A DNA stretch of 64,000 nt from an uncultured Bdellovibrionales bacterium (GCA_964594215.1 CAZQLN010000002.1:105855-169854); one strand, 5' to 3'; positions 5,060 to 26,556 are shown, counted from the first letter of the stretch. The notes: generated from the letters alone by a model not told the origin. Translations and numbers: made by a program.

Positions 5060-5533
5060 CTAGGCCGCCATGAGCTTCTTCGAAGCATACGATACCTGCC
5101 GCTCACGAATCTGAGTGAGCTCATAGCGCATATGCGCAGTGAGTTCACCTTCGCGACCCATGAATGTCTTTTCGAGAAGGTTGACGATCTCGTTCGAACG
5201 AGCTCCGATAGGCCGGAGCAGATCGAGCATATGCCGAGCCATCGCCAGCCGGCTCCAAGGATTGGAGTAACCGTTGCGGTCGAAACGTTCGACAATATAG
5301 TCGAGTGTCTCATCGGCGATTTCCCGACGCTCATCAGCGCCAGGCTTGCCGTCATAGGCGTACGAGTCCTGAATCTTGGCAAGGACTCCCCTGACGCGAG
5401 CGTCGAGATCAGCCCGATGTATAGTGGCCGCCTGATAGGTCGTCATCAACTTGCATTTGATCGAAACGACCTTCGCAGCCTTTGCGGCGGCAATCTTCTG
5501 AGCGCGGGTTGGGCTCTTCTCACGTTTTGCCAT
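5060..5533 (-). CDS. Hypothetical basic protein (about 157 aa from MAKREKSPTR...), GC-rich relative to surroundings
   Basis: ORF 5060..5578; an internal ATG is preceded by a gaggaagaaaaggaag Shine-Dalgarno and is the likely start. Hand-counted GC is about 57% versus about 40% in flanks. No recognisable family. Confidence 0.5.
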   Translation of the reverse strand: MAKREKSPTRAQKIAAAKAAKVVSIKCKLMTTYQAATIHRADLDARVRGVLAKIQDSYAYDGKPGADERREIADETLDYIVERFDRNGYSNPWSRLAMARHMLDLLRPIGARSNEIVNLLEKTFMGREGELTAHMRYELTQIRERQVSYASKKLMAA

Positions 5534-6390: not shown

Positions 6391-7683
6391 TTACTTCAAC
6401 TTCTCGAGAAATTCAAGGGTTTTACGATTTTGGAGTTGCTCACGTACAGCCGTATAGAGACGCGGAAGATCTATTTTCTTTTCTGCATCTTCAACATTCT
6501 TATAATACTGCATCGTCTTATTGATCTCCTCCTCAATCTCTTCGTTCTCAACGACAATCTCTTCATCCTTCGCCACGGCCTGTAAAACAAGCTCTGCAGC
6601 AATGCGCTTCTTAGCTTGTGGACTCCATTCTTTGCGAACGTCATCTTCGGTCTTGCCCATACGAGTGAGATACTCTGTAAAATCCATGCCCATCATTTCT
6701 GCCTGAGAGGCAAATTCTCGAAGCATTCGACTTTCTTCTTCGTGGACCAACACCTCAGGATACTCAAGAGTCGTACTCGCTACTAAGGCATCGAGGATTT
6801 GGACTCGACGATCTTCGAGAGCCTTCGCTTTTTGTTCCTCCTCAATACCTATCCGAATATTTTTCTTCAGTTCATCTAGAGTTTCAAACTTCCCTAGAGT
6901 TTTTACAAATTCATCAGTCAATTCAGGTACTTGTTTTTCTTGAACAGCGCGCAAAGTAACCGTGAACTCAGCCGGCTTACCGGCTAAGTGTTTTGCATGA
7001 TACTCAGTTGGAAAAACAAGACTAAACGTTTTAGTTTCTCCAGCTTCCATACCAAGTACTTCTTCCTCAAAGCCAGGAATAAAAGTGTTACTTCCCAAAA
7101 CAAGCGGATGATTATCACTCTTACCACCCTCAATAACCACTCCATCTTGCTTGACTTCGAAGTCAACGAGTGCAGTATCGCCTTCCTTAGCAGCACGCGC
7201 CACCGTGACTAATGGTGCCCTCATCTCAGTCAAACGCTTAAGTTCAGCTTCCACTTCAGCATCATCAACGCCAAGTTTCTGCTTATCAGCTTCTTGATTG
7301 ATTTTCTTGATTGTCTTTCGCCATTCCCCCAAAACCACCGTTGGCATCACATCGGTCTCTACCACATAGACCAAAGGTTCACCTTCTTTAAACTGTTCCA
7401 ATTTTACGGCTGGATGACCGATAGCTTCGATATTTTCTTGGTTCAAAACCTTTGGGTATGAATGACTCACCGCGTGCTCTGCTGCTTCAGCTAACACAGC
7501 TTCGCGACCAAAACGCTGTTCTACGACAGCTTTTGGTACTTTACCTTTACGAAAACCTGGTAACTTCACATTCTTAGCCATCTCAGTAGATGCGTGCTCA
7601 ATCTCTTTCTGCCAATCTTCCCATGGCAGAGTAATAGTAAGCTCTATTCGAGAGGCGGGGAGTTGTTTCTTAGTAATCTGCAT
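6391..7683 (-). CDS. tig: Trigger factor
   Basis: 430 aa; ribosome-binding N-domain (GFRKGKVP), FKBP-like PPIase middle domain and C-terminal domain. Confidence 0.9.
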   Translation of the reverse strand: MQITKKQLPASRIELTITLPWEDWQKEIEHASTEMAKNVKLPGFRKGKVPKAVVEQRFGREAVLAEAAEHAVSHSYPKVLNQENIEAIGHPAVKLEQFKEGEPLVYVVETDVMPTVVLGEWRKTIKKINQEADKQKLGVDDAEVEAELKRLTEMRAPLVTVARAAKEGDTALVDFEVKQDGVVIEGGKSDNHPLVLGSNTFIPGFEEEVLGMEAGETKTFSLVFPTEYHAKHLAGKPAEFTVTLRAVQEKQVPELTDEFVKTLGKFETLDELKKNIRIGIEEEQKAKALEDRRVQILDALVASTTLEYPEVLVHEEESRMLREFASQAEMMGMDFTEYLTRMGKTEDDVRKEWSPQAKKRIAAELVLQAVAKDEEIVVENEEIEEEINKTMQYYKNVEDAEKKIDLPRLYTAVREQLQNRKTLEFLEKLK

Positions 7684-7707: not shown

Positions 7708-8241
7708 TTATTGCTGTGGGAATTTTTCGTTATAGAGAGAGCGTGAACGCACAATAGCTTCATGAGCCTGTTCTTTCTCATGGAAACCTTTTACCTCGAC
7801 TACCTTATTGTCGATAGTTTTGTAAGTTTCAAAGAAGTGACGCATCTCCTTTAAGGTATAGGGGTTAACATCTTTGAGAGTGAGTACTGCATCAAAACGA
7901 GGGTCGCTCGCTGGCACGGCGATCATCTTGTCATCACTGTCACCACCATCAATCATAGTCATGATACCGACTGGACGAGCCTCAACCAAGATGCCGGGAG
8001 CCAATGGATACGTAGTAAGAAGAACCACATCAAGGGCGTCTCCATCATCCCACAATGTTTGTGGAACAAAACCATAATCAAAAGGATAGTCCTGTGAAGT
8101 TTTCATCGCTCGATCAAGTTTGATCAGACCAGTTTCCTTGTCTATCTCATACTTGTTTTTGGTGCCTTTTGGACACTCAATGATCACATTTACGGTTTCT
8201 GGTATATTGTCACCTGCTGAAATATCGTGCCACAAGTTCAT
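7708..8241 (-). CDS. ppa: Inorganic pyrophosphatase (family I)
   Basis: 177 aa; family-I soluble PPase signature around DGDPLDVLV-like motif (DGDALDVVLL). Confidence 0.9.
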   Translation of the reverse strand: MNLWHDISAGDNIPETVNVIIECPKGTKNKYEIDKETGLIKLDRAMKTSQDYPFDYGFVPQTLWDDGDALDVVLLTTYPLAPGILVEARPVGIMTMIDGGDSDDKMIAVPASDPRFDAVLTLKDVNPYTLKEMRHFFETYKTIDNKVVEVKGFHEKEQAHEAIVRSRSLYNEKFPQQ

Positions 8242-8282: not shown

Positions 8283-9578
8283 TTATGCTTCTGTTTCTTC
8301 TGAAGCTACTTCTTCTGCAACCATTTCCGTTTCTAGAACAGCTTCATCAGCCACCCCTTCCTCAATAGACTCAGCTGATTCTTCGACAACTGGCTCGTCA
8401 CTAGTTACATCAAGTTTCCAGCCAGTGAGCTTAGCAGCCAGACGAACGTTTTGGCCGCGCTTACCAATAGCCAGAGAAAGCTGGTCATGAGGTACAGTCA
8501 CTACCGCACGCATCTCATCTTCGAAAAGTTCCACTTTAAGTACCTTGGCTGGTGATAGGGCAGCACTGATAAATTTGATAGCATCTTCGTTCCATTCGAT
8601 AATGTCAATTTTTTCGCCACCCAGTTCATCGATAATAGCCTGAACACGGGTTCCCTTTTGACCAACACAAGATCCAATCGGATCAACACCTTCTTCAGAG
8701 GTAGCCACCGCAATCTTGGTACGACTACCAGCTTCACGAGAAATAGCTTTGATCTGGACAGTTCCTGTGAAAATCTCAGGTACCTCAAGGGTGAAGAGAT
8801 GCTCTACCATTTGTGGGTGAGTACGAGACAGGAGAAGGCCAGGACCTTTGGTATCAGATTCTACACGAACAAGAAATACTTTGAGATGCTGTCCGACACG
8901 ATAGTTCTCACCTTCTATTTGCTCTGATGGAAAAAGAATTCCCACTGATTTACCAAGATCAACAAACACATTACGACCCTCAACACGCTGTACGATTCCA
9001 TTGACCACTTGACCTTCTTTTTCTTTGTATTCTTCGAACATGGTCTCCCGTTCAGCTTCTCGAATACGCTGAATGATAACTTGTTTAGCAGTCTGTGCAG
9101 CTACGCGCCCGAAAGTGTCTTGACTCTCAAGCTCCATATCAATAGTCTCGCCTACCTTAACCCCCTTCTTCAACTTTTTGGCATCAGCCAAAGTGATGTC
9201 ACGCTCACGATTAAAACGCGGGAGTTTTCCTTCTTCTACTTCATAGTCTTCACGAACACCATCTCCTTGAGCCTCTTCTCCCTCTTCCACTTCTTCAACA
9301 AATTCACGAGTAGTCTCATCAACCACTTCTTTGACCAAGAAAAAAGAAGCGCTCTTTGCTACTTCATCAAAATGAGCACGAATCACCTGACCCTTCTTAC
9401 CGTAGTCTTTCTTGTAAGCAGCTGCTAGCGCAGCCTCGACTACTTCAAGTACACGTTCTTTGGAAAGACCTTTCTCATCAGCAATTTGCATGACAGCACT
9501 TCCGAATTCGCCAAGGCGTCCCGAGAGACTTCCTTGTTCTTCGTTATTTTCTTCTGCCTGTATTTTCTTTTTCGGCAT
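8283..9578 (-). CDS. nusA: Transcription termination/antitermination factor NusA
   Basis: N-terminal NusA domain (SKERVLEVVEAALAAAYKK), S1 and two KH domains, acidic C-terminus. ORF track gives 8283..9710; the 44-aa N-terminal extension is not NusA-like, so the start is probably the MPKKKIQ ATG at about 9578. Confidence 0.85.
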   Translation of the reverse strand: MPKKKIQAEENNEEQGSLSGRLGEFGSAVMQIADEKGLSKERVLEVVEAALAAAYKKDYGKKGQVIRAHFDEVAKSASFFLVKEVVDETTREFVEEVEEGEEAQGDGVREDYEVEEGKLPRFNRERDITLADAKKLKKGVKVGETIDMELESQDTFGRVAAQTAKQVIIQRIREAERETMFEEYKEKEGQVVNGIVQRVEGRNVFVDLGKSVGILFPSEQIEGENYRVGQHLKVFLVRVESDTKGPGLLLSRTHPQMVEHLFTLEVPEIFTGTVQIKAISREAGSRTKIAVATSEEGVDPIGSCVGQKGTRVQAIIDELGGEKIDIIEWNEDAIKFISAALSPAKVLKVELFEDEMRAVVTVPHDQLSLAIGKRGQNVRLAAKLTGWKLDVTSDEPVVEESAESIEEGVADEAVLETEMVAEEVASEETEA

Positions 9579-9720: not shown

Positions 9721-9758
9721 AAAAGAAAAAGGGCGGGTTATCCGAAGATAAACCCGCC
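9721..9758 (-). terminator. Intrinsic terminator ending the GC-rich two-gene operon
   Basis: gggcgggtt-loop-aacccgccc stem followed on the minus strand by TTTTTCTTT. Confidence 0.55.
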
Positions 9759-9779
9759 CCTCTGAGCATTTTCGAGATG

Positions 9780-10832
9780 TTACTCGAAGGTCATATTGAG
9801 TCGCTGAGGCTGAATGTGCATGGCACGAACTGCAGCCGTCAGATTGAACGAAAGCTCGACACAGCCCGAGTCATTGACTCGTACCGATGCCTCGGATGGC
9901 CCCTTGAACTTCGCTGTTTCCACCGGAGTCCCGTTGATGACGACCACTCCCGAAAGAGTGTAGTCACCTTCGTTGAGGCGTATCTGCTGGTATGGGATAG
10001 TGACATCCCTTTCTCCGGGACGAATCCCGCAGACCAACTGGGCATCAAAAGAGGTGACATCCACCACTTTGGTGGTCGTGCGACCGCCGATGGTGTCGTA
10101 CAGGACATTTTCAGCCTGGCCGATAACACGATGATCTTCACGCTCCTTTTGGAGAGCGCTCAGTTCTTCGTATTCAGCGAAGCTCAACTTCTCACCTTGC
10201 TCGGCACGTGCTAGCAGTTCTTCTGCTCTGGCGTTTTTGACTTCATCAGCACGAACCATGAGCGCCCGTTCAATCCGGGACGTAGTCAGGTCTTGCGGAT
10301 GAAAATACATCCACGTGTAGTAGGTAACCCCCACACCTGAAACAGCAAGGACAAGCCAGATGGCTTTGAAGTAGAGCTTTGCTGGAGCCTTAGCCAAGTA
10401 GCTGATGATCGCAATCAGGCCAAGAATGACCAGAACTGCGATGACGCCGTCAGTGTGCTCAATGCGTGTGATTCCGATGACGACCAAAGCCGTCCCCAGA
10501 AACAACATCGCGTGAGCCACCTTTTTGGTGTAGGCCTCAAGCGTACTGCCCACTGTGTACCTTCTGGAAATCGTGGCGAAGCCAAGAACGCCCCAAAGCA
10601 CTGGTGGACTGTACGCCGCAAGACCGCCGAAAATGCCGACAAACAGCGCAATGAAGAAACACCAACCCGGATGACCGAGCTTATTGACAGTCACCCCCAA
10701 ATAGAGGATGGCCAAGAAGCCAAACACGCTTCCGAGGAAGAGAGTAGTATAGAATGGCTTCAGCCAATCATAGAACCCCTCAGCTTCTACCAAAGCTCGC
10801 GTTCTCAATCTTTGACGAATACCTGCATACAT
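9780..10832 (-). CDS. Hypothetical membrane protein (about 5 N-terminal TM helices plus soluble C-terminal domain), GC-rich
   Basis: 350-aa ORF with AGGAG Shine-Dalgarno; starts 18 nt after the upstream gene's stop; GC hand-counted about 50-57%. Confidence 0.6.
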   Translation of the reverse strand: MYAGIRQRLRTRALVEAEGFYDWLKPFYTTLFLGSVFGFLAILYLGVTVNKLGHPGWCFFIALFVGIFGGLAAYSPPVLWGVLGFATISRRYTVGSTLEAYTKKVAHAMLFLGTALVVIGITRIEHTDGVIAVLVILGLIAIISYLAKAPAKLYFKAIWLVLAVSGVGVTYYTWMYFHPQDLTTSRIERALMVRADEVKNARAEELLARAEQGEKLSFAEYEELSALQKEREDHRVIGQAENVLYDTIGGRTTTKVVDVTSFDAQLVCGIRPGERDVTIPYQQIRLNEGDYTLSGVVVINGTPVETAKFKGPSEASVRVNDSGCVELSFNLTAAVRAMHIQPQRLNMTFE

Positions 10833-10850
10833 ATCTAATCTCCTGTATCT

Positions 10851-11750
10851 TTAGCCGAAAGTGTTGTATCCGAGTAGGGCGAGAAAGCTCAAAATGAGCG
10901 TCAGTGGTATCCAGAAAGCATAGCTTTTACTGGTTGCCACTTTATGAGCGATGTGCTCATTTCTCATCTCAAGCGTTCTGTCCAGAAGCTCTTCGATCAA
11001 TCGTACCTTTGTCGTTTCTGTTACACGCCTAGTAAGAATATCTCCGAGCGCGTTTGAATCAACAAAGAAACTCGTAACCATGAGCAGCCCCCGCACTCCC
11101 TGCTTGCGCAGGAACTGAGGAGTCTGGGTAATCAACTTTGAAACCCAGTCAAAGAAGGGCTTGTCATCAAGTGCGGTCGCCAGTAGATACTCAGCCGCCA
11201 AAGCTACTGCTTCATCAGAATCAGCAACGATGTCCTTGCCTGAGAAATCTTTTCCGGGCTCACTCACCATATCAGCGATATTCTGCAGATAGATGATCCG
11301 CGGATCACTTGGCGTATTCTTGGCATCCACGGCGCCATGGTGAGCTGCAGGCTTACGCCCCCAGCCGCTACCAGCGGTACCATGTCCAGTCGTCTTGCGG
11401 TGAGGCAGAATGACTGGACCATGTGGATCATGCTTGAGACCTTCCACGACAATCGTCGCTACTATCATCTCCCAACGTTTCCGCTGAGCACCTGATAACA
11501 AAAGTCTCACGCGAGTAATACGTTTGCGATCTTCGAGACTGAGACGGTTGAGAGCATTGTTGAATTCTGCCTCTTCCTTGTACCCTATCCCGAAAAGATT
11601 GGGCACATCCTCTTTCATGACTTTCTGGAAGGCTTCTTGTCCTCCATTGGTCCACGCCCCTTGCAGGGTCTTGATGATGTTATTAACTACGCCTTCGGCC
11701 AAACCGTCAGCTGCACCTCTCATAAAGAGGCCTGAGAGAATACTTGGCAT
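10851..11750 (-). CDS. Hypothetical protein with C-terminal TM tail-anchor, GC-rich
   Basis: 299-aa ORF with AAGGAA Shine-Dalgarno; hydrophobic C-terminus (AFWIPLTLILSFLALLGY); no recognisable family. Confidence 0.55.
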   Translation of the reverse strand: MPSILSGLFMRGAADGLAEGVVNNIIKTLQGAWTNGGQEAFQKVMKEDVPNLFGIGYKEEAEFNNALNRLSLEDRKRITRVRLLLSGAQRKRWEMIVATIVVEGLKHDPHGPVILPHRKTTGHGTAGSGWGRKPAAHHGAVDAKNTPSDPRIIYLQNIADMVSEPGKDFSGKDIVADSDEAVALAAEYLLATALDDKPFFDWVSKLITQTPQFLRKQGVRGLLMVTSFFVDSNALGDILTRRVTETTKVRLIEELLDRTLEMRNEHIAHKVATSKSYAFWIPLTLILSFLALLGYNTFG

Positions 11751-11785
11751 TATTCGTTCCTTTCGATTGTTTCAGTTATTAAAGA

Positions 11786-11844
11786 GCCCGTCGCGACAAA
11801 GCGCGGTCACGGTCTGTCCACGACGGGCAGAAAATCACCGTAAC
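11786..11844 (-). promoter_or_regulatory. Conserved 5' leader RNA element, copy A (candidate riboswitch or attenuator)
   Basis: Transcript GUUACGGUGAUUUUCUGCCCGUCGUGGACAGACCGU... starts 6 nt after the -10 box. The first 36 nt are identical to copy B except one compensatory C/U. A downstream strand GCGACGGGC can pair with GCCCGUCGU. Confidence 0.45.
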
Positions 11845-11849
11845 CTACT

Positions 11850-11878
11850 ATTATACTCCTATTATTTGATTTTGTCAA
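11850..11878 (-). promoter_or_regulatory. Consensus sigma70 promoter TTGACA-17-TATAAT
   Basis: Minus strand reads TTGACAaaatcaaataataggagTATAAT. Confidence 0.6.
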
Positions 11879-11932
11879 TAGTAAAAACATCTGAAGATCC
11901 CTATTTAAAGCAAAAAATCCCTAAATAATTAT

Positions 11933-11970
11933 AAAAAATAGGGGGTGGAACTCAAAAAAGTCCCACCCCC
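11933..11970 (-). terminator. Intrinsic terminator after the NUDIX-like gene
   Basis: ggggtgggac...gttccacccc hairpin followed by TATTTTTT on the minus strand. Confidence 0.5.
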
Positions 11971-11992
11971 CTACCAGGTTCACACGCTCAGT

Positions 11993-12724
11993 CTAGTCGT
12001 GATGTTTATCACGCAGATGAGCCAACAAACGTGCGCAGCCCGCTACTAAAATACCATCAGGCGACTGCGCAATAAGCTCATACCAGGGCATGAAGGTGAT
12101 TTCCGCTTCTTTTTGATGAGATGAAACACCAGCCTTGAAATGTGCTCGGAGATACCGATGTTTGTCCAGCTCAATAGATTCCAGGGGAATCTCCAGTCCG
12201 CTATAACGCACCCCTTCTCCCTTACTGGAATCAGCAAGGAAAAAAAGACGGTCAACACAAACTGGCAAACCCTGAATCACCTTTGGCTTGAAGCTCGCGC
12301 CAAGACCAGCCTCCTCAGAGAGTTCTGCAGCCAAAGCTTCGTCCCTTGAGAGTTTGAGCTCATTCATCCCGCCAATAGCGCAGAAATGTCTGCCGCCCAT
12401 ATTTGGACGTTCTTCGCGGATTGCTCCGATCCAGAGAACTTCGCCCGGATCCCAGAAATACAAGAGACACACTTCACCGCCGCCACTTGGCTGAGCAATG
12501 ATAGGTCCTTGAAAATCTTCCGAACCCTTATTGCGATAACCGAGTGCGAAGACCGTATCGCGGGTCGGATTGTAGAGAATAGCCTGAGATATTTCTGTCC
12601 AATTACCCGACGTACCGACTTTCAGCCGCCATTCACGTTGAGTGTTGGAAATATCATCGGGCTTGCCTAAGAAACCCAAAACCTTTTTCAAGGCTGGTCC
12701 TATTTTGACATCCAAAGACATCAT
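11993..12724 (-). CDS. NUDIX-fold hydrolase-like protein (Nudix box partly degenerate), GC-rich
   Basis: GGMNELKLSRDEALAAELSEEAGL aligns to the Nudix box GX5EX7REUXEEXGU with R to A and E to L substitutions. Start taken at MMSLD with AAGGAG Shine-Dalgarno (ORF track start 12811 would run through the leader element). Confidence 0.5.
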   Translation of the reverse strand: MMSLDVKIGPALKKVLGFLGKPDDISNTQREWRLKVGTSGNWTEISQAILYNPTRDTVFALGYRNKGSEDFQGPIIAQPSGGGEVCLLYFWDPGEVLWIGAIREERPNMGGRHFCAIGGMNELKLSRDEALAAELSEEAGLGASFKPKVIQGLPVCVDRLFFLADSSKGEGVRYSGLEIPLESIELDKHRYLRAHFKAGVSSHQKEAEITFMPWYELIAQSPDGILVAGCARLLAHLRDKHHD

Positions 12725-12753
12725 CTTACTCCTTCTCTCTAAATTGGAAAGGT

Positions 12754-12817
12754 GCCCGTCGTAGAAAAACCTACGAGGATTACGGTCTATCCACGACGGG
12801 CAGAAAATCACCGTAAC
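12754..12817 (-). promoter_or_regulatory. Conserved 5' leader RNA element, copy B
   Basis: GUUACGGUGAUUUUCUGCCCGUCGUGGAUAGACCGU..., followed by a different internal hairpin and then ACGACGGGC; starts 6 nt after the -10 box. Confidence 0.45.
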
Positions 12818-12822
12818 GCTCT

Positions 12823-12851
12823 ATTTTAGCATAAAAAAGCAAAAAAGTCAA
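12823..12851 (-). promoter_or_regulatory. Near-consensus sigma70 promoter TTGACT-17-TAAAAT
   Basis: Minus strand reads TTGACTtttttgcttttttatgcTAAAAT. Confidence 0.55.
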
Positions 12852-12904
12852 TGGCTGGCACTGACTTCTCCTCTTTCAGCAATTTGCTTTATCTAAAGCC
12901 TTAT

Positions 12905-13981
12905 CTATTGGAAAAAGTCTGCTATCTGTCTCACAATGACTAAGGCTGAAAATGCTACAATAATACCAATAATAGCGTACTTCACAATATCCTTACCGGT
13001 ATTAGCCCGCTTCTCATCACCAGCAGAAAGGAAATACATGATGGCTCCAATCAGAAGCATGATGATAGCTAAGACGCCGATAATAGCTAGAAGAAAATTA
13101 AGCACATTGGTAGCTATCTCAGTTAAGGTCAAAGCGCTACTCGCCTGACTTGGTAGATTATTCCAACCCAATACACCTGCCAGTTCCTTGAGGAAGGATG
13201 GCGCTACCATGACAATAGCCAATCCGATAAGGGCGGCTGTGATCGCCGCTTTAGCAGCTCCGACACGCTTATCATTCCCCGCCGAGGTAATGTAAAGAAG
13301 AGCGCCAATGACCAGAAATACTAAGGCTAGTAAAACAACGATATTGCGCATGAAACCGAGAACGCTGTCGAGAAATGTTTCCACCGTGGTGTACTGTGTC
13401 GGTGAATTAAAAGTAATAAGAATAGGTGCTCCAGCTGTAGGAGAAGTTACTCCACCACCGCCAGCAGGCCCACCAGGAGAAGATGGTATACAACACTGTC
13501 CGGAGCTACAGGTACCGTTCTGAGTGCTGCCACTTGGACAAGTTGGATTACAGGTACCTCCTGCATTTGCGCAAGCCGCATCACTAGTTGGAGGTGTCCC
13601 ACTCGGAGCTGGTGGAGTAGTGGCTGGAGACGTGGATACACAACAAACGCTATTATTCCAACTAAAAGCTATTCTTTCATTAGTACCACAACTTGTCGCT
13701 CGTTGCGCCTTCAATTGAGCTACTCTACCATTAGTCCCATTAGGATTAGTACAAACAACCGTATAAGAGAGGCAACAAGACCCATTACCAGCACCAAAAC
13801 AGCCCGAACCCACCTCTTGTTCATCACTATTGCAATTATTAAAAATGCCTGTTCTACAGGTTCCCTGCGCCGCCTTACACTGCTGTGCAGTCATAGGGAT
13901 AATAGCCGAGTAACTAGAGCTCGGAAAAGCAATAACTCCCGTAATAACAAACGCCAAAGTGATGAAAAAATGTTTCTTCAT
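12905..13981 (-). CDS. Secreted Cys-rich protein with two tandem C-terminal TrbC/VirB2-like pilin modules
   Basis: Signal peptide MKKHFFITLAFVITGVIA, Cys/Pro/Thr-rich ectodomain, then two repeats of TM - YITSAGNDKR/FLSAGDEKR - TM matching the adjacent small pilin-like proteins. ORF track 12905..14020; start moved to an internal Met to avoid overlap. Confidence 0.6.
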   Translation of the reverse strand: MKKHFFITLAFVITGVIAFPSSSYSAIIPMTAQQCKAAQGTCRTGIFNNCNSDEQEVGSGCFGAGNGSCCLSYTVVCTNPNGTNGRVAQLKAQRATSCGTNERIAFSWNNSVCCVSTSPATTPPAPSGTPPTSDAACANAGGTCNPTCPSGSTQNGTCSSGQCCIPSSPGGPAGGGGVTSPTAGAPILITFNSPTQYTTVETFLDSVLGFMRNIVVLLALVFLVIGALLYITSAGNDKRVGAAKAAITAALIGLAIVMVAPSFLKELAGVLGWNNLPSQASSALTLTEIATNVLNFLLAIIGVLAIIMLLIGAIMYFLSAGDEKRANTGKDIVKYAIIGIIVAFSALVIVRQIADFFQ

Positions 13982-13982
13982 A

Positions 13983-14489
13983 TTAAAAAGTGTTGCTTTG
14001 GGCAGTAAGAAGTGTTTCAATAGCCTGCAAGATAACTAAACCACTAAGAGCGACAATAACACCAATAATAGCATTGAGCATATTTCTCTTACCCGTCTCT
14101 GCGAGCTTAGCATCCCCTACGGAAGCCAAATACTGCATACCTGAAATCACAAAAGCGATAATAGCGAGCATCCCAACAATAGCTAACAACCAAAACATAA
14201 ACGTCATAAGGATGTTCCCTAATGGCGCGCTAGAAAGGCCAGTATTAGTCGGGAAGCAAACTCCCGCTTCTATGGTTCCATTACATGGAGTTCCTGAAGT
14301 ACTCGTACTTGATCCTCCTCCATTTTGTGTGGAAGTGGCTGCTTGGGCTTGGGCTTCTTGAACAGCCTGGGCTTGTATTTGCGGAGTAATAATATTATTC
14401 AGATTACCCGTTGGAGTCTGTGCCTTTAAAGGCAGTGCCGTGACTATAAAAAAGATTCCTACGAAAAGAAACTGTAAATATTTTTTCAT
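13983..14489 (-). CDS. TrbC/VirB2-like pilin-family membrane protein with short Cys-containing N-terminal region
   Basis: 168 aa; signal peptide, then WLLAIVGMLAIIAFVISGMQYLASVGDAKLAETGKRNMLNAIIGVIVALSGLVILQAIE (two TM helices separated by a short basic loop). Confidence 0.55.
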   Translation of the reverse strand: MKKYLQFLFVGIFFIVTALPLKAQTPTGNLNNIITPQIQAQAVQEAQAQAATSTQNGGGSSTSTSGTPCNGTIEAGVCFPTNTGLSSAPLGNILMTFMFWLLAIVGMLAIIAFVISGMQYLASVGDAKLAETGKRNMLNAIIGVIVALSGLVILQAIETLLTAQSNTF

Positions 14490-14574
14490 ATTACTTTTAG
14501 TTTTTGCTAACCCAATTATACCACAAAAAAACAGCCTCTTCTTGATAAGAGACTGTTTTCATTGAAGACTAAAA

Positions 14575-14946
14575 TTAGAAGTTCGGTTGCCCTGAACCAT
14601 CTAAGAATGTATCAACTGCCTGGATAATTACGAAACCAATAAGGGCTACAATAATACCCGTAATAGCGGCTGTCATAGCGCTCTTGGCGGTACCAACCTT
14701 CTTTTCATCTCCGGCTGCGGTGAGATACAGGATACCAGCGATGACAAAGGCAATGATTCCGATGAAACCAAGAACAGCCAGAAGCCAGTTCATAGCTGTT
14801 TGGATAATACCGATGATAGAACCCTGTGGAAGTTGTGAATTCTGAGCATTGGTTTGTCCGGCTTTCCACTGTGCGTTAGCGAGAGTCGGCATCAAAAGCA
14901 ACACAAAAGCGAGCGCACTGTAGAAATAGTTTTTAACTAATGTCAT
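14575..14946 (-). CDS. TrbC/VirB2-like pilin-family membrane protein
   Basis: 123 aa; signal peptide ...TLANA, then NWLLAVLGFIGIIAFVIAGILYLTAAGDEKKVGTAKSAMTAAITGIIVALIGFVIIQAVD. Confidence 0.55.
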   Translation of the reverse strand: MTLVKNYFYSALAFVLLLMPTLANAQWKAGQTNAQNSQLPQGSIIGIIQTAMNWLLAVLGFIGIIAFVIAGILYLTAAGDEKKVGTAKSAMTAAITGIIVALIGFVIIQAVDTFLDGSGQPNF

Positions 14947-15018
14947 ATTTCTCTCACCTCCTTTCTTTTATTGAGCGTATAGCTCGTTTTTATTTTTTCT
15001 CTTCTGTTTTTTTTCTTT

Positions 15019-15300
15019 TCAGGGTGCAAAGAATGAACTCAACTGACTGACAATAACAAGCGCTCCGAGTGCTACCACTATACCAATAATGGAAAACTGG
15101 AAAGCCTTTTTAGCAAGATCTACTTGCTTCGTATTGCCTAGAGCTGTAAGGTACAAAATCCCCGCAACCACTAGTGCAATTATAGCAAGCACCCCCACGA
15201 TTGACAACAGAAACTGTAAAATATTTTCTAAGATGGTCGTGATGGGAGTGGCATTGGTAATACTTCCCGCATAAACTGTACTAATAAATAGAGCCTTCAT
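15019..15300 (-). CDS. TrbC/VirB2-like pilin-family membrane protein
   Basis: 93 aa; short signal peptide, two TM helices around YLTALGNTKQ, same module as neighbours. Confidence 0.55.
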   Translation of the reverse strand: MKALFISTVYAGSITNATPITTILENILQFLLSIVGVLAIIALVVAGILYLTALGNTKQVDLAKKAFQFSIIGIVVALGALVIVSQLSSFFAP

Positions 15301-26473: not shown

Positions 26474-26556
26474 GGGCAAGTGGCGGAATTGGTATACGCG
26501 CTAGTCTTAGGAACTAGTGTCCTTGTGAATTGAGGGTTCGAGTCCCTCCTTGCCCA
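26474..26556 (+). tRNA. tRNA-Leu, anticodon UAG (class II, long variable arm)
   Basis: Acceptor GGGCAAG/CTTGCCC, anticodon stem-loop CTAGT-CTTAGGA-ACTAG, long variable arm, T-arm GGGTTCGAGTCCC. Confidence 0.85.

Follow-up and report, generated by a model that had tools for sequence, protein, structure and literature searches.

The question raised by this locus is why a short stretch of DNA from an uncultured Bdellovibrionales bacterium differs in base composition from its surroundings, and whether the three genes that it holds arrived there as foreign DNA. The DNA analysed (GCA_964594215.1 CAZQLN010000002.1:105855-169854; hereafter the window, with positions counted from its first nucleotide) is 64,000 nt long, the flagged stretch occupies 9780-12724, and all genes in the area lie on the minus strand. 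An earlier note, written from the sequence alone, had interpreted the stretch as an island of horizontally acquired, strongly expressed cassettes. In this study, we report that both transcription units of the stretch share one structured leader of about 60-65 nt, a feature which that note had overlooked, and that this pseudoknot 5' leader is absent from Rfam and from the literature searched. On balance, we favour a reading in which the locus is a fixed-position, content-variable accessory locus of Candidatus (Ca.) Moraniibacteriota-type genomes (Candidate Phyla Radiation, CPR, or Patescibacteria), with its two units co-regulated by the new cis-acting leader.

The locus is situated between a run of type IV secretion system (T4SS)-pilin genes (12905-15300, PF18895) and nusA (8283 to about 9575), and is divided into two transcription units, each with its own promoter and terminator. 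Unit 1 consists of a gene at 11993-12724 for a 243-amino-acid (aa) protein, predicted from profile, alignment and AF2/Foldseek results to have a Nudix fold and to be ADP-ribose/NDP-sugar (nucleoside diphosphate sugar) pyrophosphatase-like. Unit 2 consists of two called open reading frames (ORFs), ORF-B (299 aa, 10851-11750) and ORF-A (350 aa, 9780-10832). Both promoters are of the consensus sigma-70 type. The unit 1 promoter, TTGACT-17-TAAAAT with a TG ahead of the -10 box (12823-12851), matches the consensus at 10 of 12 positions; the unit 2 promoter, TTGACA-17-TATAAT (11850-11878), is a perfect 12/12 match, of which the 64 kb hold 2 against about 0.02 expected by our own estimate. The intrinsic terminator of unit 1 (11930-11971) has a stem at 11971-11940 with 14 pairs, 8 of them G-C, followed by ATTTTTTAT. 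That of unit 2 (9721-9759), read directly from the sequence, has its stem at 9759-9731 (GGGCGGGUUUAUC-UUCG-GAUAACCCGCCC) and its U run at 9730-9721 (UUUUUCUUUU), with the nusA promoter directly downstream. All these elements are on the minus strand, and the two self-contained units, both promoters and both terminator hairpins (11971-11930 and 9759-9721) were located as the earlier note had described them.

Both leaders start 5 bases after the -10 box, at most one base away from the predicted transcription start, and read GUUACGGUGAUUUUCUGCCCGUCGUGGAyAGACCGUrAyC...CGACGGGC. The repeat is 47 nt long with 89% identity between the two window copies; its 25-nt core has exactly two occurrences in the window (0 expected), and a search of the window for further copies, degenerate ones included and with filters off, found none. 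Repeat search, pair counts and a covariance model placed the core of copy 1 at 12754-12817 (89.3 bits, E about 1e-18) and that of copy 2 at 11786-11844 (80.6 bits, E about 3e-16), both on the minus strand. Two helices are predicted: P1, formed by GUUACGGU with ACCGUAAy, and P2, formed by GCCCGUCG with CGACGGGC. In copy 1 the 5' arm of P1 (12817-12810) is followed by loop L1 (12809-12802), the 5' arm of P2 (12801-12794), loop L2 (12793-12787), the 3' arm of P1 (12786-12779) and the 3' arm of P2 (12761-12754), and in copy 2 the arms are P1 5' 11844-11837, P2 5' 11828-11821, P1 3' 11813-11806 and P2 3' 11793-11786. This order, a-b-a'-b', is the topology of an H-type pseudoknot. An unstructured tail, which bears the Shine-Dalgarno (SD) sequence AAGGAG in copy 1, reaches 12725 in that copy, and the tail of copy 2 reaches 11751. 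Across versions the consensus of P1 is GUUACrGU:rCyGUrAy (8 bp, containing the 5'-terminal nucleotides) and that of P2 is GCCCrUyr:yrAyGGGy (8-12 bp). Most versions have a third, variable hairpin, P3, often GGC-UUCG-GCC, between the 3' arms of P1 and P2. The loops GAUUUUCU and UGGACAG are invariant.

In the covariance-model alignment, 98.1% of 264 cells were paired under the pseudoknot model, against 28-48% when the partners were slid, and P1 was 100% paired. Two-sided changes were found at 5 pairs (9 cells), a level reached by at most 1/500 shuffles. The P1 pair of columns 6-43 is A-U, G-C or G-U depending on the version, the P2 pairs of columns 30-78 and 33-75 are each G-C, A-U or G-U, and paralogous copies within a single metagenome-assembled genome (MAG; loci L012 and L018) show a compensatory G-C versus A-U at columns 30-78. 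RNAalifold, run on a MAFFT alignment that had not been fitted to the model, recovered the same eight P2 pairs. The leader contains numerous G-U pairs, which would become C-A mismatches on the opposite strand; because these pairs fit the sense strand alone, the leader is best viewed as a sense-strand RNA and not as a DNA element. No family of Rfam 15 matched it at gathering thresholds, with chance-level matches to unrelated families at E <= 10, and the literature searched yielded no paper describing a structured regulatory RNA for this lineage or this pseudoknot.

Related loci were reached via homologues of the Nudix-like protein and ORF-A and their contigs, and the leader was sought with a degenerate DNA pattern in 185,579 species genomes. 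In total, 15 distinct versions, about 11 of them independent, were obtained from Moraniibacteriota-type contigs (loci L003, which has two, L009, L010, L012, L014, L016, L017, L018, L020, L023/L024 and L026-L028); four of the versions are near-duplicates from the window lineage, and W1 and W2 (the window copies), the two L026 copies and a truncated L025 copy are near-identical. L012 and L018 belong to the same Ca. Moraniibacteriota MAG and L017 to another. L014 (CAYLMF010000001.1) and L016 (CAZLQC010000001.1) are from MAGs labelled 'uncultured Bdellovibrionales', and their gene content is of CPR type, with a block of T4SS pilins, leader, ORF-B/ORF-A and nusA; the L016/L023 type is close to the window, with 77-90% protein identity in pilin and NusA. 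These observations suggest that the Bdellovibrionales label on L014 and L016 is a taxonomic mislabel or the result of bin contamination. The leader motif was absent from the viral contigs searched, and metagenome contigs gave one match, at chance level.

Every version of the leader is preceded by TTGAC(A/T)-17-TAnAAT with the constant spacing TAnAAT-AGNNN-GTTAC, and therefore P1 is expected to contain or directly abut the predicted 5' end of the transcript. The leader is also found ahead of an unrelated secreted-protein gene in L012, so that it acts like a regulon element. In L003, about 130 nt match without a difference between the two copies (1384-1498 and 2327-2441); the match takes in the SD and the opening codons (AUGGCAG) of two genes that are not related to each other, and it indicates recent gene conversion between the copies. 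In most leaders a semi-conserved A/U-rich element, YUUAACAA, is present between P2 and the SD (e.g. 'ACAUUAACAAUUGAGAG' in L014 and L017). An element of the same type, ACAUUAACAAUC, is found at about 5632-5621, where the gene at 5060-5533 has a leader unrelated to these, and YUUAACAA may be a general translation-enhancer or standby site of the lineage.

A second conformer of the leader is also predicted. Nested minimum-free-energy folding favours one long hairpin, in which P2 is extended by AGGCUG:CGGCCU; the inner helix takes up the 3' arm of P1 and the 3' strand of P3, leaving GUUACAGU unpaired. This alternative helix is 82% paired across sequences, with some double changes, in a region where the alignment is less reliable, and RNAalifold predicts part of it. 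The leader may thus toggle between a sequestered and a free 5' end. Three conventional modes of control were considered and rejected. An intrinsic-terminator attenuator does not agree with the leaders, none of which has a U tract 3' of P2. The SD lies 20-30 nt downstream and stays unpaired in every fold, and duplex energies for an anti-SD role of the 5' arm and L1 were no better than those of shuffled sequences (z -1.3 to +1.1). A leader peptide is contradicted by 1-nt indels in L1, which shift the GTG frame of leader 1, and by the GTA found in L003.

It is known that 5'-terminal helices protect mRNA, and we prefer a mechanism based on accessibility of the 5' end. On this view the leader would regulate in cis, as an RNA, and place both units under common control. 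A trans factor, protein or metabolite, would recognise the invariant loops (GAUUUUCU and UGGACAG) and choose between the two conformers, and sequestration or exposure of the 5' end would set the stability, and hence the yield, of very strongly transcribed mRNAs.

The three window proteins gave nothing usable against Pfam, NCBIfam, PADLOC and PHROGs, and the Nudix-like protein had no Pfam or NCBIfam match, PF00293 included, at E <= 0.1. Its family is very rare, with 9 clusters at 90% identity among 5.8 billion proteins. The earlier note had called it NUDIX-like with a degenerate box (AELSEE), and this holds: the box is present (GGMNELKLSRDEALAAELSEEAGL; LAAELSEEAGL; G-x5-L-x7-A-E-L-x-E-E-x-G-L), with Ala for the canonical Arg. 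In the family alignment G119, E134, E137, E138 and G140 are invariant, so that the ExxEExGU half of the box with its three metal-binding Glu is retained; in the close clade the first Glu is replaced by L/M/T and the Arg by A/H/Q/M/K. P0009, the relative most distant from the window protein, has the canonical residue at both sites and a weak precomputed PF00293 match. A profile search of PDB sequences matched Nudix proteins only, weakly (E about 0.01). When the AF2 model (predicted local distance difference test score, pLDDT, 77.8) was compared with the PDB by Foldseek, 156 matches were obtained at E <= 1e-3; the best 50 listed were all Nudix enzymes (TM-score 0.36-0.58), and the top matches were all ADP-ribose pyrophosphatases (ADPRases), namely NUDT5, NudF, Mt-ADPRase and YffH (E 1e-7 to 1e-6). 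The protein is therefore modelled with an ADPRase-like Nudix fold. The Pro positions after the box, considered for the ADPRase subfamily, are not conserved in the family alignment, and the likeness is one of fold alone. Since the three metal-binding Glu are kept, Nudix-like enzymatic activity of the predicted enzyme is plausible from its sequence.

Distant homologues of this protein (36-38% identity) are encoded at L004:8001-8705, L005:3525-4229 and L008:1921-2619, downstream of a gene for a KhpA-like KH-domain protein. Their promoters, TTGAC-17-TAAAAT/TAATAT, are strong, their leaders are short, different hairpins, and their G+C content at third codon positions (GC3), 0.55-0.66, is above that of the flanks.

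The other two proteins were described as uncharacterised and membrane-associated, and their sequences agree with this. ORF-A has at least 4 hydrophobic 19-aa (transmembrane) segments, after which come an HPQD..IER motif, a helical stretch and a C-terminal domain rich in beta structure; ORF-B has a soluble body and one C-terminal transmembrane segment (tail-anchored), and the Nudix-like protein has no hydrophobic 19-aa segment. ORF-A belongs to a small, lineage-specific family (58 clusters at 50% identity in a set of 1.84 billion proteins); it had no family match, its PDB profile search was empty, and its AF2 model (pLDDT 43.6) was too poor for a fold search. ORF-B, likewise lineage-specific, forms an orphan family that evolves fast: the database search found only a 95%-identical cluster, and its syntenic homology is visible by pairwise comparison and alignment. 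A 228-aa gene of L023 and a 191-aa gene of L012 were considered as relatives of the three window proteins and rejected as unrelated.

The properties of the leader make it reasonable to ask if it represents a new class of small-molecule riboswitches, with the H-type pseudoknot as an aptamer that would be stabilised by a ligand linked to the Nudix substrate (e.g. ADP-ribose or another NDP-X). Some of the features commonly used to recognise riboswitches are found here, in that a conserved, structured element of the 5' untranslated region (UTR) with covariation recurs ahead of several genes; the loops are invariant, the helices covary in a pseudoknot topology, several leaders occur per genome ahead of different genes, one of these genes is nucleotide-sugar pyrophosphatase-like, and Rfam lacks the leader. 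Against this, most of the associated genes encode orphan membrane or secreted proteins without a metabolic link, most genomes that keep the leader have no Nudix gene at the locus, no expression platform is recognisable and the phylogenetic range is so far very narrow, and we consider a riboswitch of this kind rather unlikely.

The compositional anomaly itself is real. The G+C content (GC) of 9780-12724 is 49.8%, compared to 43.0% for the entire window; non-overlapping 2945-nt intervals have a mean of 42.6% (standard deviation 1.6, maximum 45.9), which gives the flagged stretch z = 4.6, and its tetranucleotide distance is the greatest of all window intervals (z = 3.4). The sliding GC and tetranucleotide analysis that had been proposed as a check thus finds deviation in both measures. 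The contrast reported originally, 50-57% against about 40%, was somewhat overstated, as 300-nt windows peak at 55%, 61% of 60-mers have at least 50% GC and the flanks are at 42-44%. GC3 is 0.587 in ORF-A (z 4.05), 0.510 in ORF-B (z 2.57) and 0.467 in the Nudix-like gene (z 1.75), with the 48 other window ORFs as reference (0.376 +/- 0.052). Positions 1 and 2 of the codons are ordinary in the three genes, which locates the excess at synonymous third positions, and codons ending in C and in G are both enriched.

Comparison with related genomes showed that the locus keeps its position while its content varies. The order pilins, leader, ORF-B homologue, ORF-A homologue, nusA(-ppa-tig-clpP) was found in L003, L016, L017, L018, L023/L024 and L026, whereas the L014 and L020 sequences begin at or near the leader and have the pilin side outside them; the operon keeps its pilin-to-nusA position in relatives down to 73% NusA identity. 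Identity to the window is high throughout in L026 (NusA 100%, ORF-B 95%, ORF-A 99%, Nudix-like 97%). The Nudix-like gene is absent from L020 (NusA 99%, ORF-B 23%, ORF-A 60%), L023 (90%, 26% and 52%) and L017 (87%, 27% and 35%), and L003 has it at 48% identity (NusA 73%, ORF-B 35%, ORF-A 30%). By blastn, L020 and L021 are 95.7% identical to the window in nucleotides from 10302 to 7773, lose all nucleotide similarity between 10302 and about 12710, and regain it over the unit 1 promoter and leader (83%). The 3' junction, given by blastn and the identity values, lies at 10301-10302, at the HPQD motif within ORF-A, and is the same in L020, L021, L023, L016 and L018; the 5' junction lies at about 12710-12724, in the first codons after leader 1.

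These alignments show that the window lineage carries a replaced cassette, comprising the Nudix gene, the second promoter and leader, an ORF-B allele of one of two deep, homologous types ('type I') and the transmembrane half of ORF-A. The swap, from about 12710 to 10302, proceeded by homologous recombination, its arms being the leader on one side and ORF-A's conserved 3' half on the other. That ORF-B and the transmembrane half of ORF-A were replaced together suggests an interaction of the two proteins. The Nudix gene is confined to the window/L026, L003, L009 and L010 lineages. An unrelated 228-aa orphan gene (L023:4001-4687, L024:3225-3911) occupies the slot of the Nudix unit, between the last pilin gene and the leader, and is further evidence for a swap site.

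These results bear directly on the proposal that the three genes are recently acquired foreign cassettes, whose high GC and strong promoters were left over from a GC-richer donor. The proposal draws on the GC and tetranucleotide anomaly, on the comparison with a strain-level relative, which shows some 2.4 kb (about 12710 to 10302) to have been replaced, and on the presence of the Nudix gene in only some relatives. A foreign insert should be lacking at the same site in related genomes, and the opposite was observed: the leader-ORF-B-ORF-A operon is there in all relatives recovered, and variation is limited to the Nudix gene and the type of allele. Nor is the high GC a mark of imported DNA, because the exchanged 5' half of ORF-A (GC3 0.60) and the non-exchanged 3' half (0.58) are equally GC3-rich. 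Orthologous operons are likewise GC3-rich relative to their own flanks (0.62/0.74 against 0.28-0.42 in L017, 0.61/0.72 in L018, and also in L016, L020 and L023), as are the gene that the leader precedes in L012 (0.61) and, in L004 (0.66) and L008 (0.55), the distantly homologous Nudix-like genes; in L003 the operon shows no contrast to its flanks. The range of GC3 between lineages, 0.42 to 0.74, is unlike a single import followed by amelioration. No integrase or other mobility gene, tRNA or flanking direct repeat was seen adjoining the locus, a phage origin was rejected after tblastn found no phage homologues, and promoter and leader both belong to the lineage itself. Recent import, in the sense of an insert that relatives lack, is largely refuted, and as an explanation of the locus it is unlikely. 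DNA was indeed exchanged here, and what fails in the earlier note is the foreign island and the use of GC excess as a signature of import. The raised synonymous G+C is a long-standing, lineage-variable property of the locus genes and no scar of recent import; it could stem from a recombination hot spot with GC-biased gene conversion, from selection acting on the mRNAs, or from repeated exchange with GC-richer relatives.

The coincidence of the repeat with the 5' recombination junction may also be taken to mean that it works as DNA, either as a repressor operator over +1 or as an integron-like site mobilising promoter-gene cassettes, with RNA structure being incidental. The repeat does follow the -10 box directly, where repressors bind, its copies can be homogenised within a genome (the two L003 copies), and the element ends GTTAC...GTAAC. 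A pair of inverted repeats that interleave, and whose arms lie 32 and about 40 nt from each other, is unlike an operator, the G-U pairs make the pairing strand-specific, as in RNA, and the compensatory changes keep pairing rather than sequence. An attC or integron site was rejected since the core order is the reverse of that of attC (RYYYAAC...GTTRRRY) and no integrase was seen among the window ORFs. A DNA-level role is accordingly very unlikely. Equally hard to sustain is the view that the GC anomaly is codon adaptation of very highly expressed genes and the leader a passive 5' stabiliser or translation enhancer without switching, for although the window's only two perfect promoters both drive GC3-rich genes, P1 contains the 5' end and the SD is strong and always accessible, the joint rise of G- and C-ending codons is unlike usual translational selection, neighbours that are likely to be highly expressed (tig, ppa, nusA and the pilins) have ordinary GC3 (0.33-0.44), and a passive stabiliser would not need invariant loop sequences.

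Several points weigh against a pseudoknot leader that co-regulates the two units of this locus. The covariation is real but thin, amounting to roughly 4-6 independent events among closely related sequences, and some leader copies have been homogenised by gene conversion. Both window copies are without P3, P2 being longer there instead. The leader may owe part of its conservation to a role as recombination arm. The transcription start of the leaders is a prediction and, with neither terminator nor SD sequestration found as a conventional expression platform, the output step is speculative. Lastly, the high GC3 may be due to biased gene conversion, selection or repeated import from GC-richer relatives.

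Further features were recorded around the locus. The last pilin-like gene before unit 1 (12905-14020, minus strand) encodes a 371-aa protein with two C-terminal T4SS_pilin repeats and a Cys-rich N-terminal region, for which a sub-threshold beta-defensin Pfam match was obtained (E 5.5e-4). Its terminator-like hairpin (12841-12871, minus strand; a 13-pair stem, then a T run) overlaps the -35 box of the unit 1 promoter, and the hairpin sequence is kept in L016, L018, L020 and L023. On the other side, nusA has a TTGACG-17-TATGAT promoter (9710-9682, minus strand). About 20 nt past it, at 9654-9628, the hairpin GGUUCGC-GGAA-GCGAGCC with UUUUCUUUU is a candidate attenuator, well ahead of the probable NusA start (ATG at 9577), in a leader stretch that is 90% conserved in L023; automatic nusA calls (467 aa) begin upstream of this promoter and are probably overlong. 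The genes ppa (7708-8241) and tig (6391-7683) were called beyond nusA, both on the minus strand, and tRNAs are located at 774-844 and 26474-26556. A Lys/Ala-rich orphan gene of 157 aa (5060-5533, minus strand) has the highest GC3 of the window ORFs (0.63). Its promoter (5671-5643) is the sole other perfect TTGACA-17-TATAAT, and it has its own hairpin leader, without the pseudoknot, and a terminator at about 5030-4995; syntenic counterparts lie 3' of clpP in L003 (8713-9201) and L025 (6306-6779).

To our knowledge, gene regulation in CPR/Patescibacteria is hardly known, and few structured regulatory RNAs are known from them. The leader links a divergent Nudix enzyme with a secreted protein and with membrane proteins that are orphans, offering a handle on a regulon in uncultivated, host-dependent bacteria, and it is small enough for direct biochemistry. 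The locus also calls for caution in GC-based island calling in small genomes, as what looks by composition like an "island" can be a lasting trait of a site prone to recombination. Taken together, we infer a co-regulated, hypervariable, envelope-associated locus of CPR bacteria. It is tempting, if rather doubtful, to go further and see in the leader an aptamer that defines a new class of riboswitch or ribo-regulator, confined to Moraniibacteriota-type CPR. Instead of ending transcription early or masking the SD, it would gate access to the mRNA 5' end, and it would coordinate hypervariable envelope proteins and a Nudix enzyme beside pilus genes, possibly in answer to a host-cell signal, the bacteria being episymbionts that depend on their host.

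Among known systems, the leader is closest in form to the H-type pseudoknot riboswitches (SAM-II, preQ1-II, fluoride and guanidine-III), which are compact 5' UTR RNAs of about 60-85 nt with two interleaved helices, conserved loops including a pyrimidine-rich L1, and several copies per genome ahead of different genes. It differs from them in having no Rfam match, an SD outside the helices, no terminator, orphan genes downstream and P1 at the very 5' end. With the 5' stabiliser stem-loops of the Escherichia coli ompA 5' UTR and the Bacillus subtilis aprE and ermC leaders it shares a helix at or beside +1, strong transcription of the mRNA and, downstream of the helix, a strong SD that is accessible; those are simple hairpins without conserved loops, whereas the leader here is a pseudoknot whose loops do not vary and which competes with a second conformer, and several genes share it. 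The Nudix-like protein resembles ADPRase-type Nudix enzymes (NudF/ADPRase, NUDT5, Mt-ADPRase and YffH) in its predicted fold, including an N-terminal beta domain, and in the ExxEExGU half of the box, and departs from them in its 14-18% identity, the lack of a PF00293 match, Leu for the Glu of Gx5E, Ala for the Arg of REUxEE, and the rarity of its family. Variable or replacement islands are found at conserved chromosomal positions, as at O-antigen and capsule loci. The present locus is smaller, with 2-3 genes, and its breakpoints fall inside a gene and at a regulatory RNA; in common with those islands it has conserved flanks, divergent alleles swapped by homologous recombination, atypical composition and membrane or surface products.

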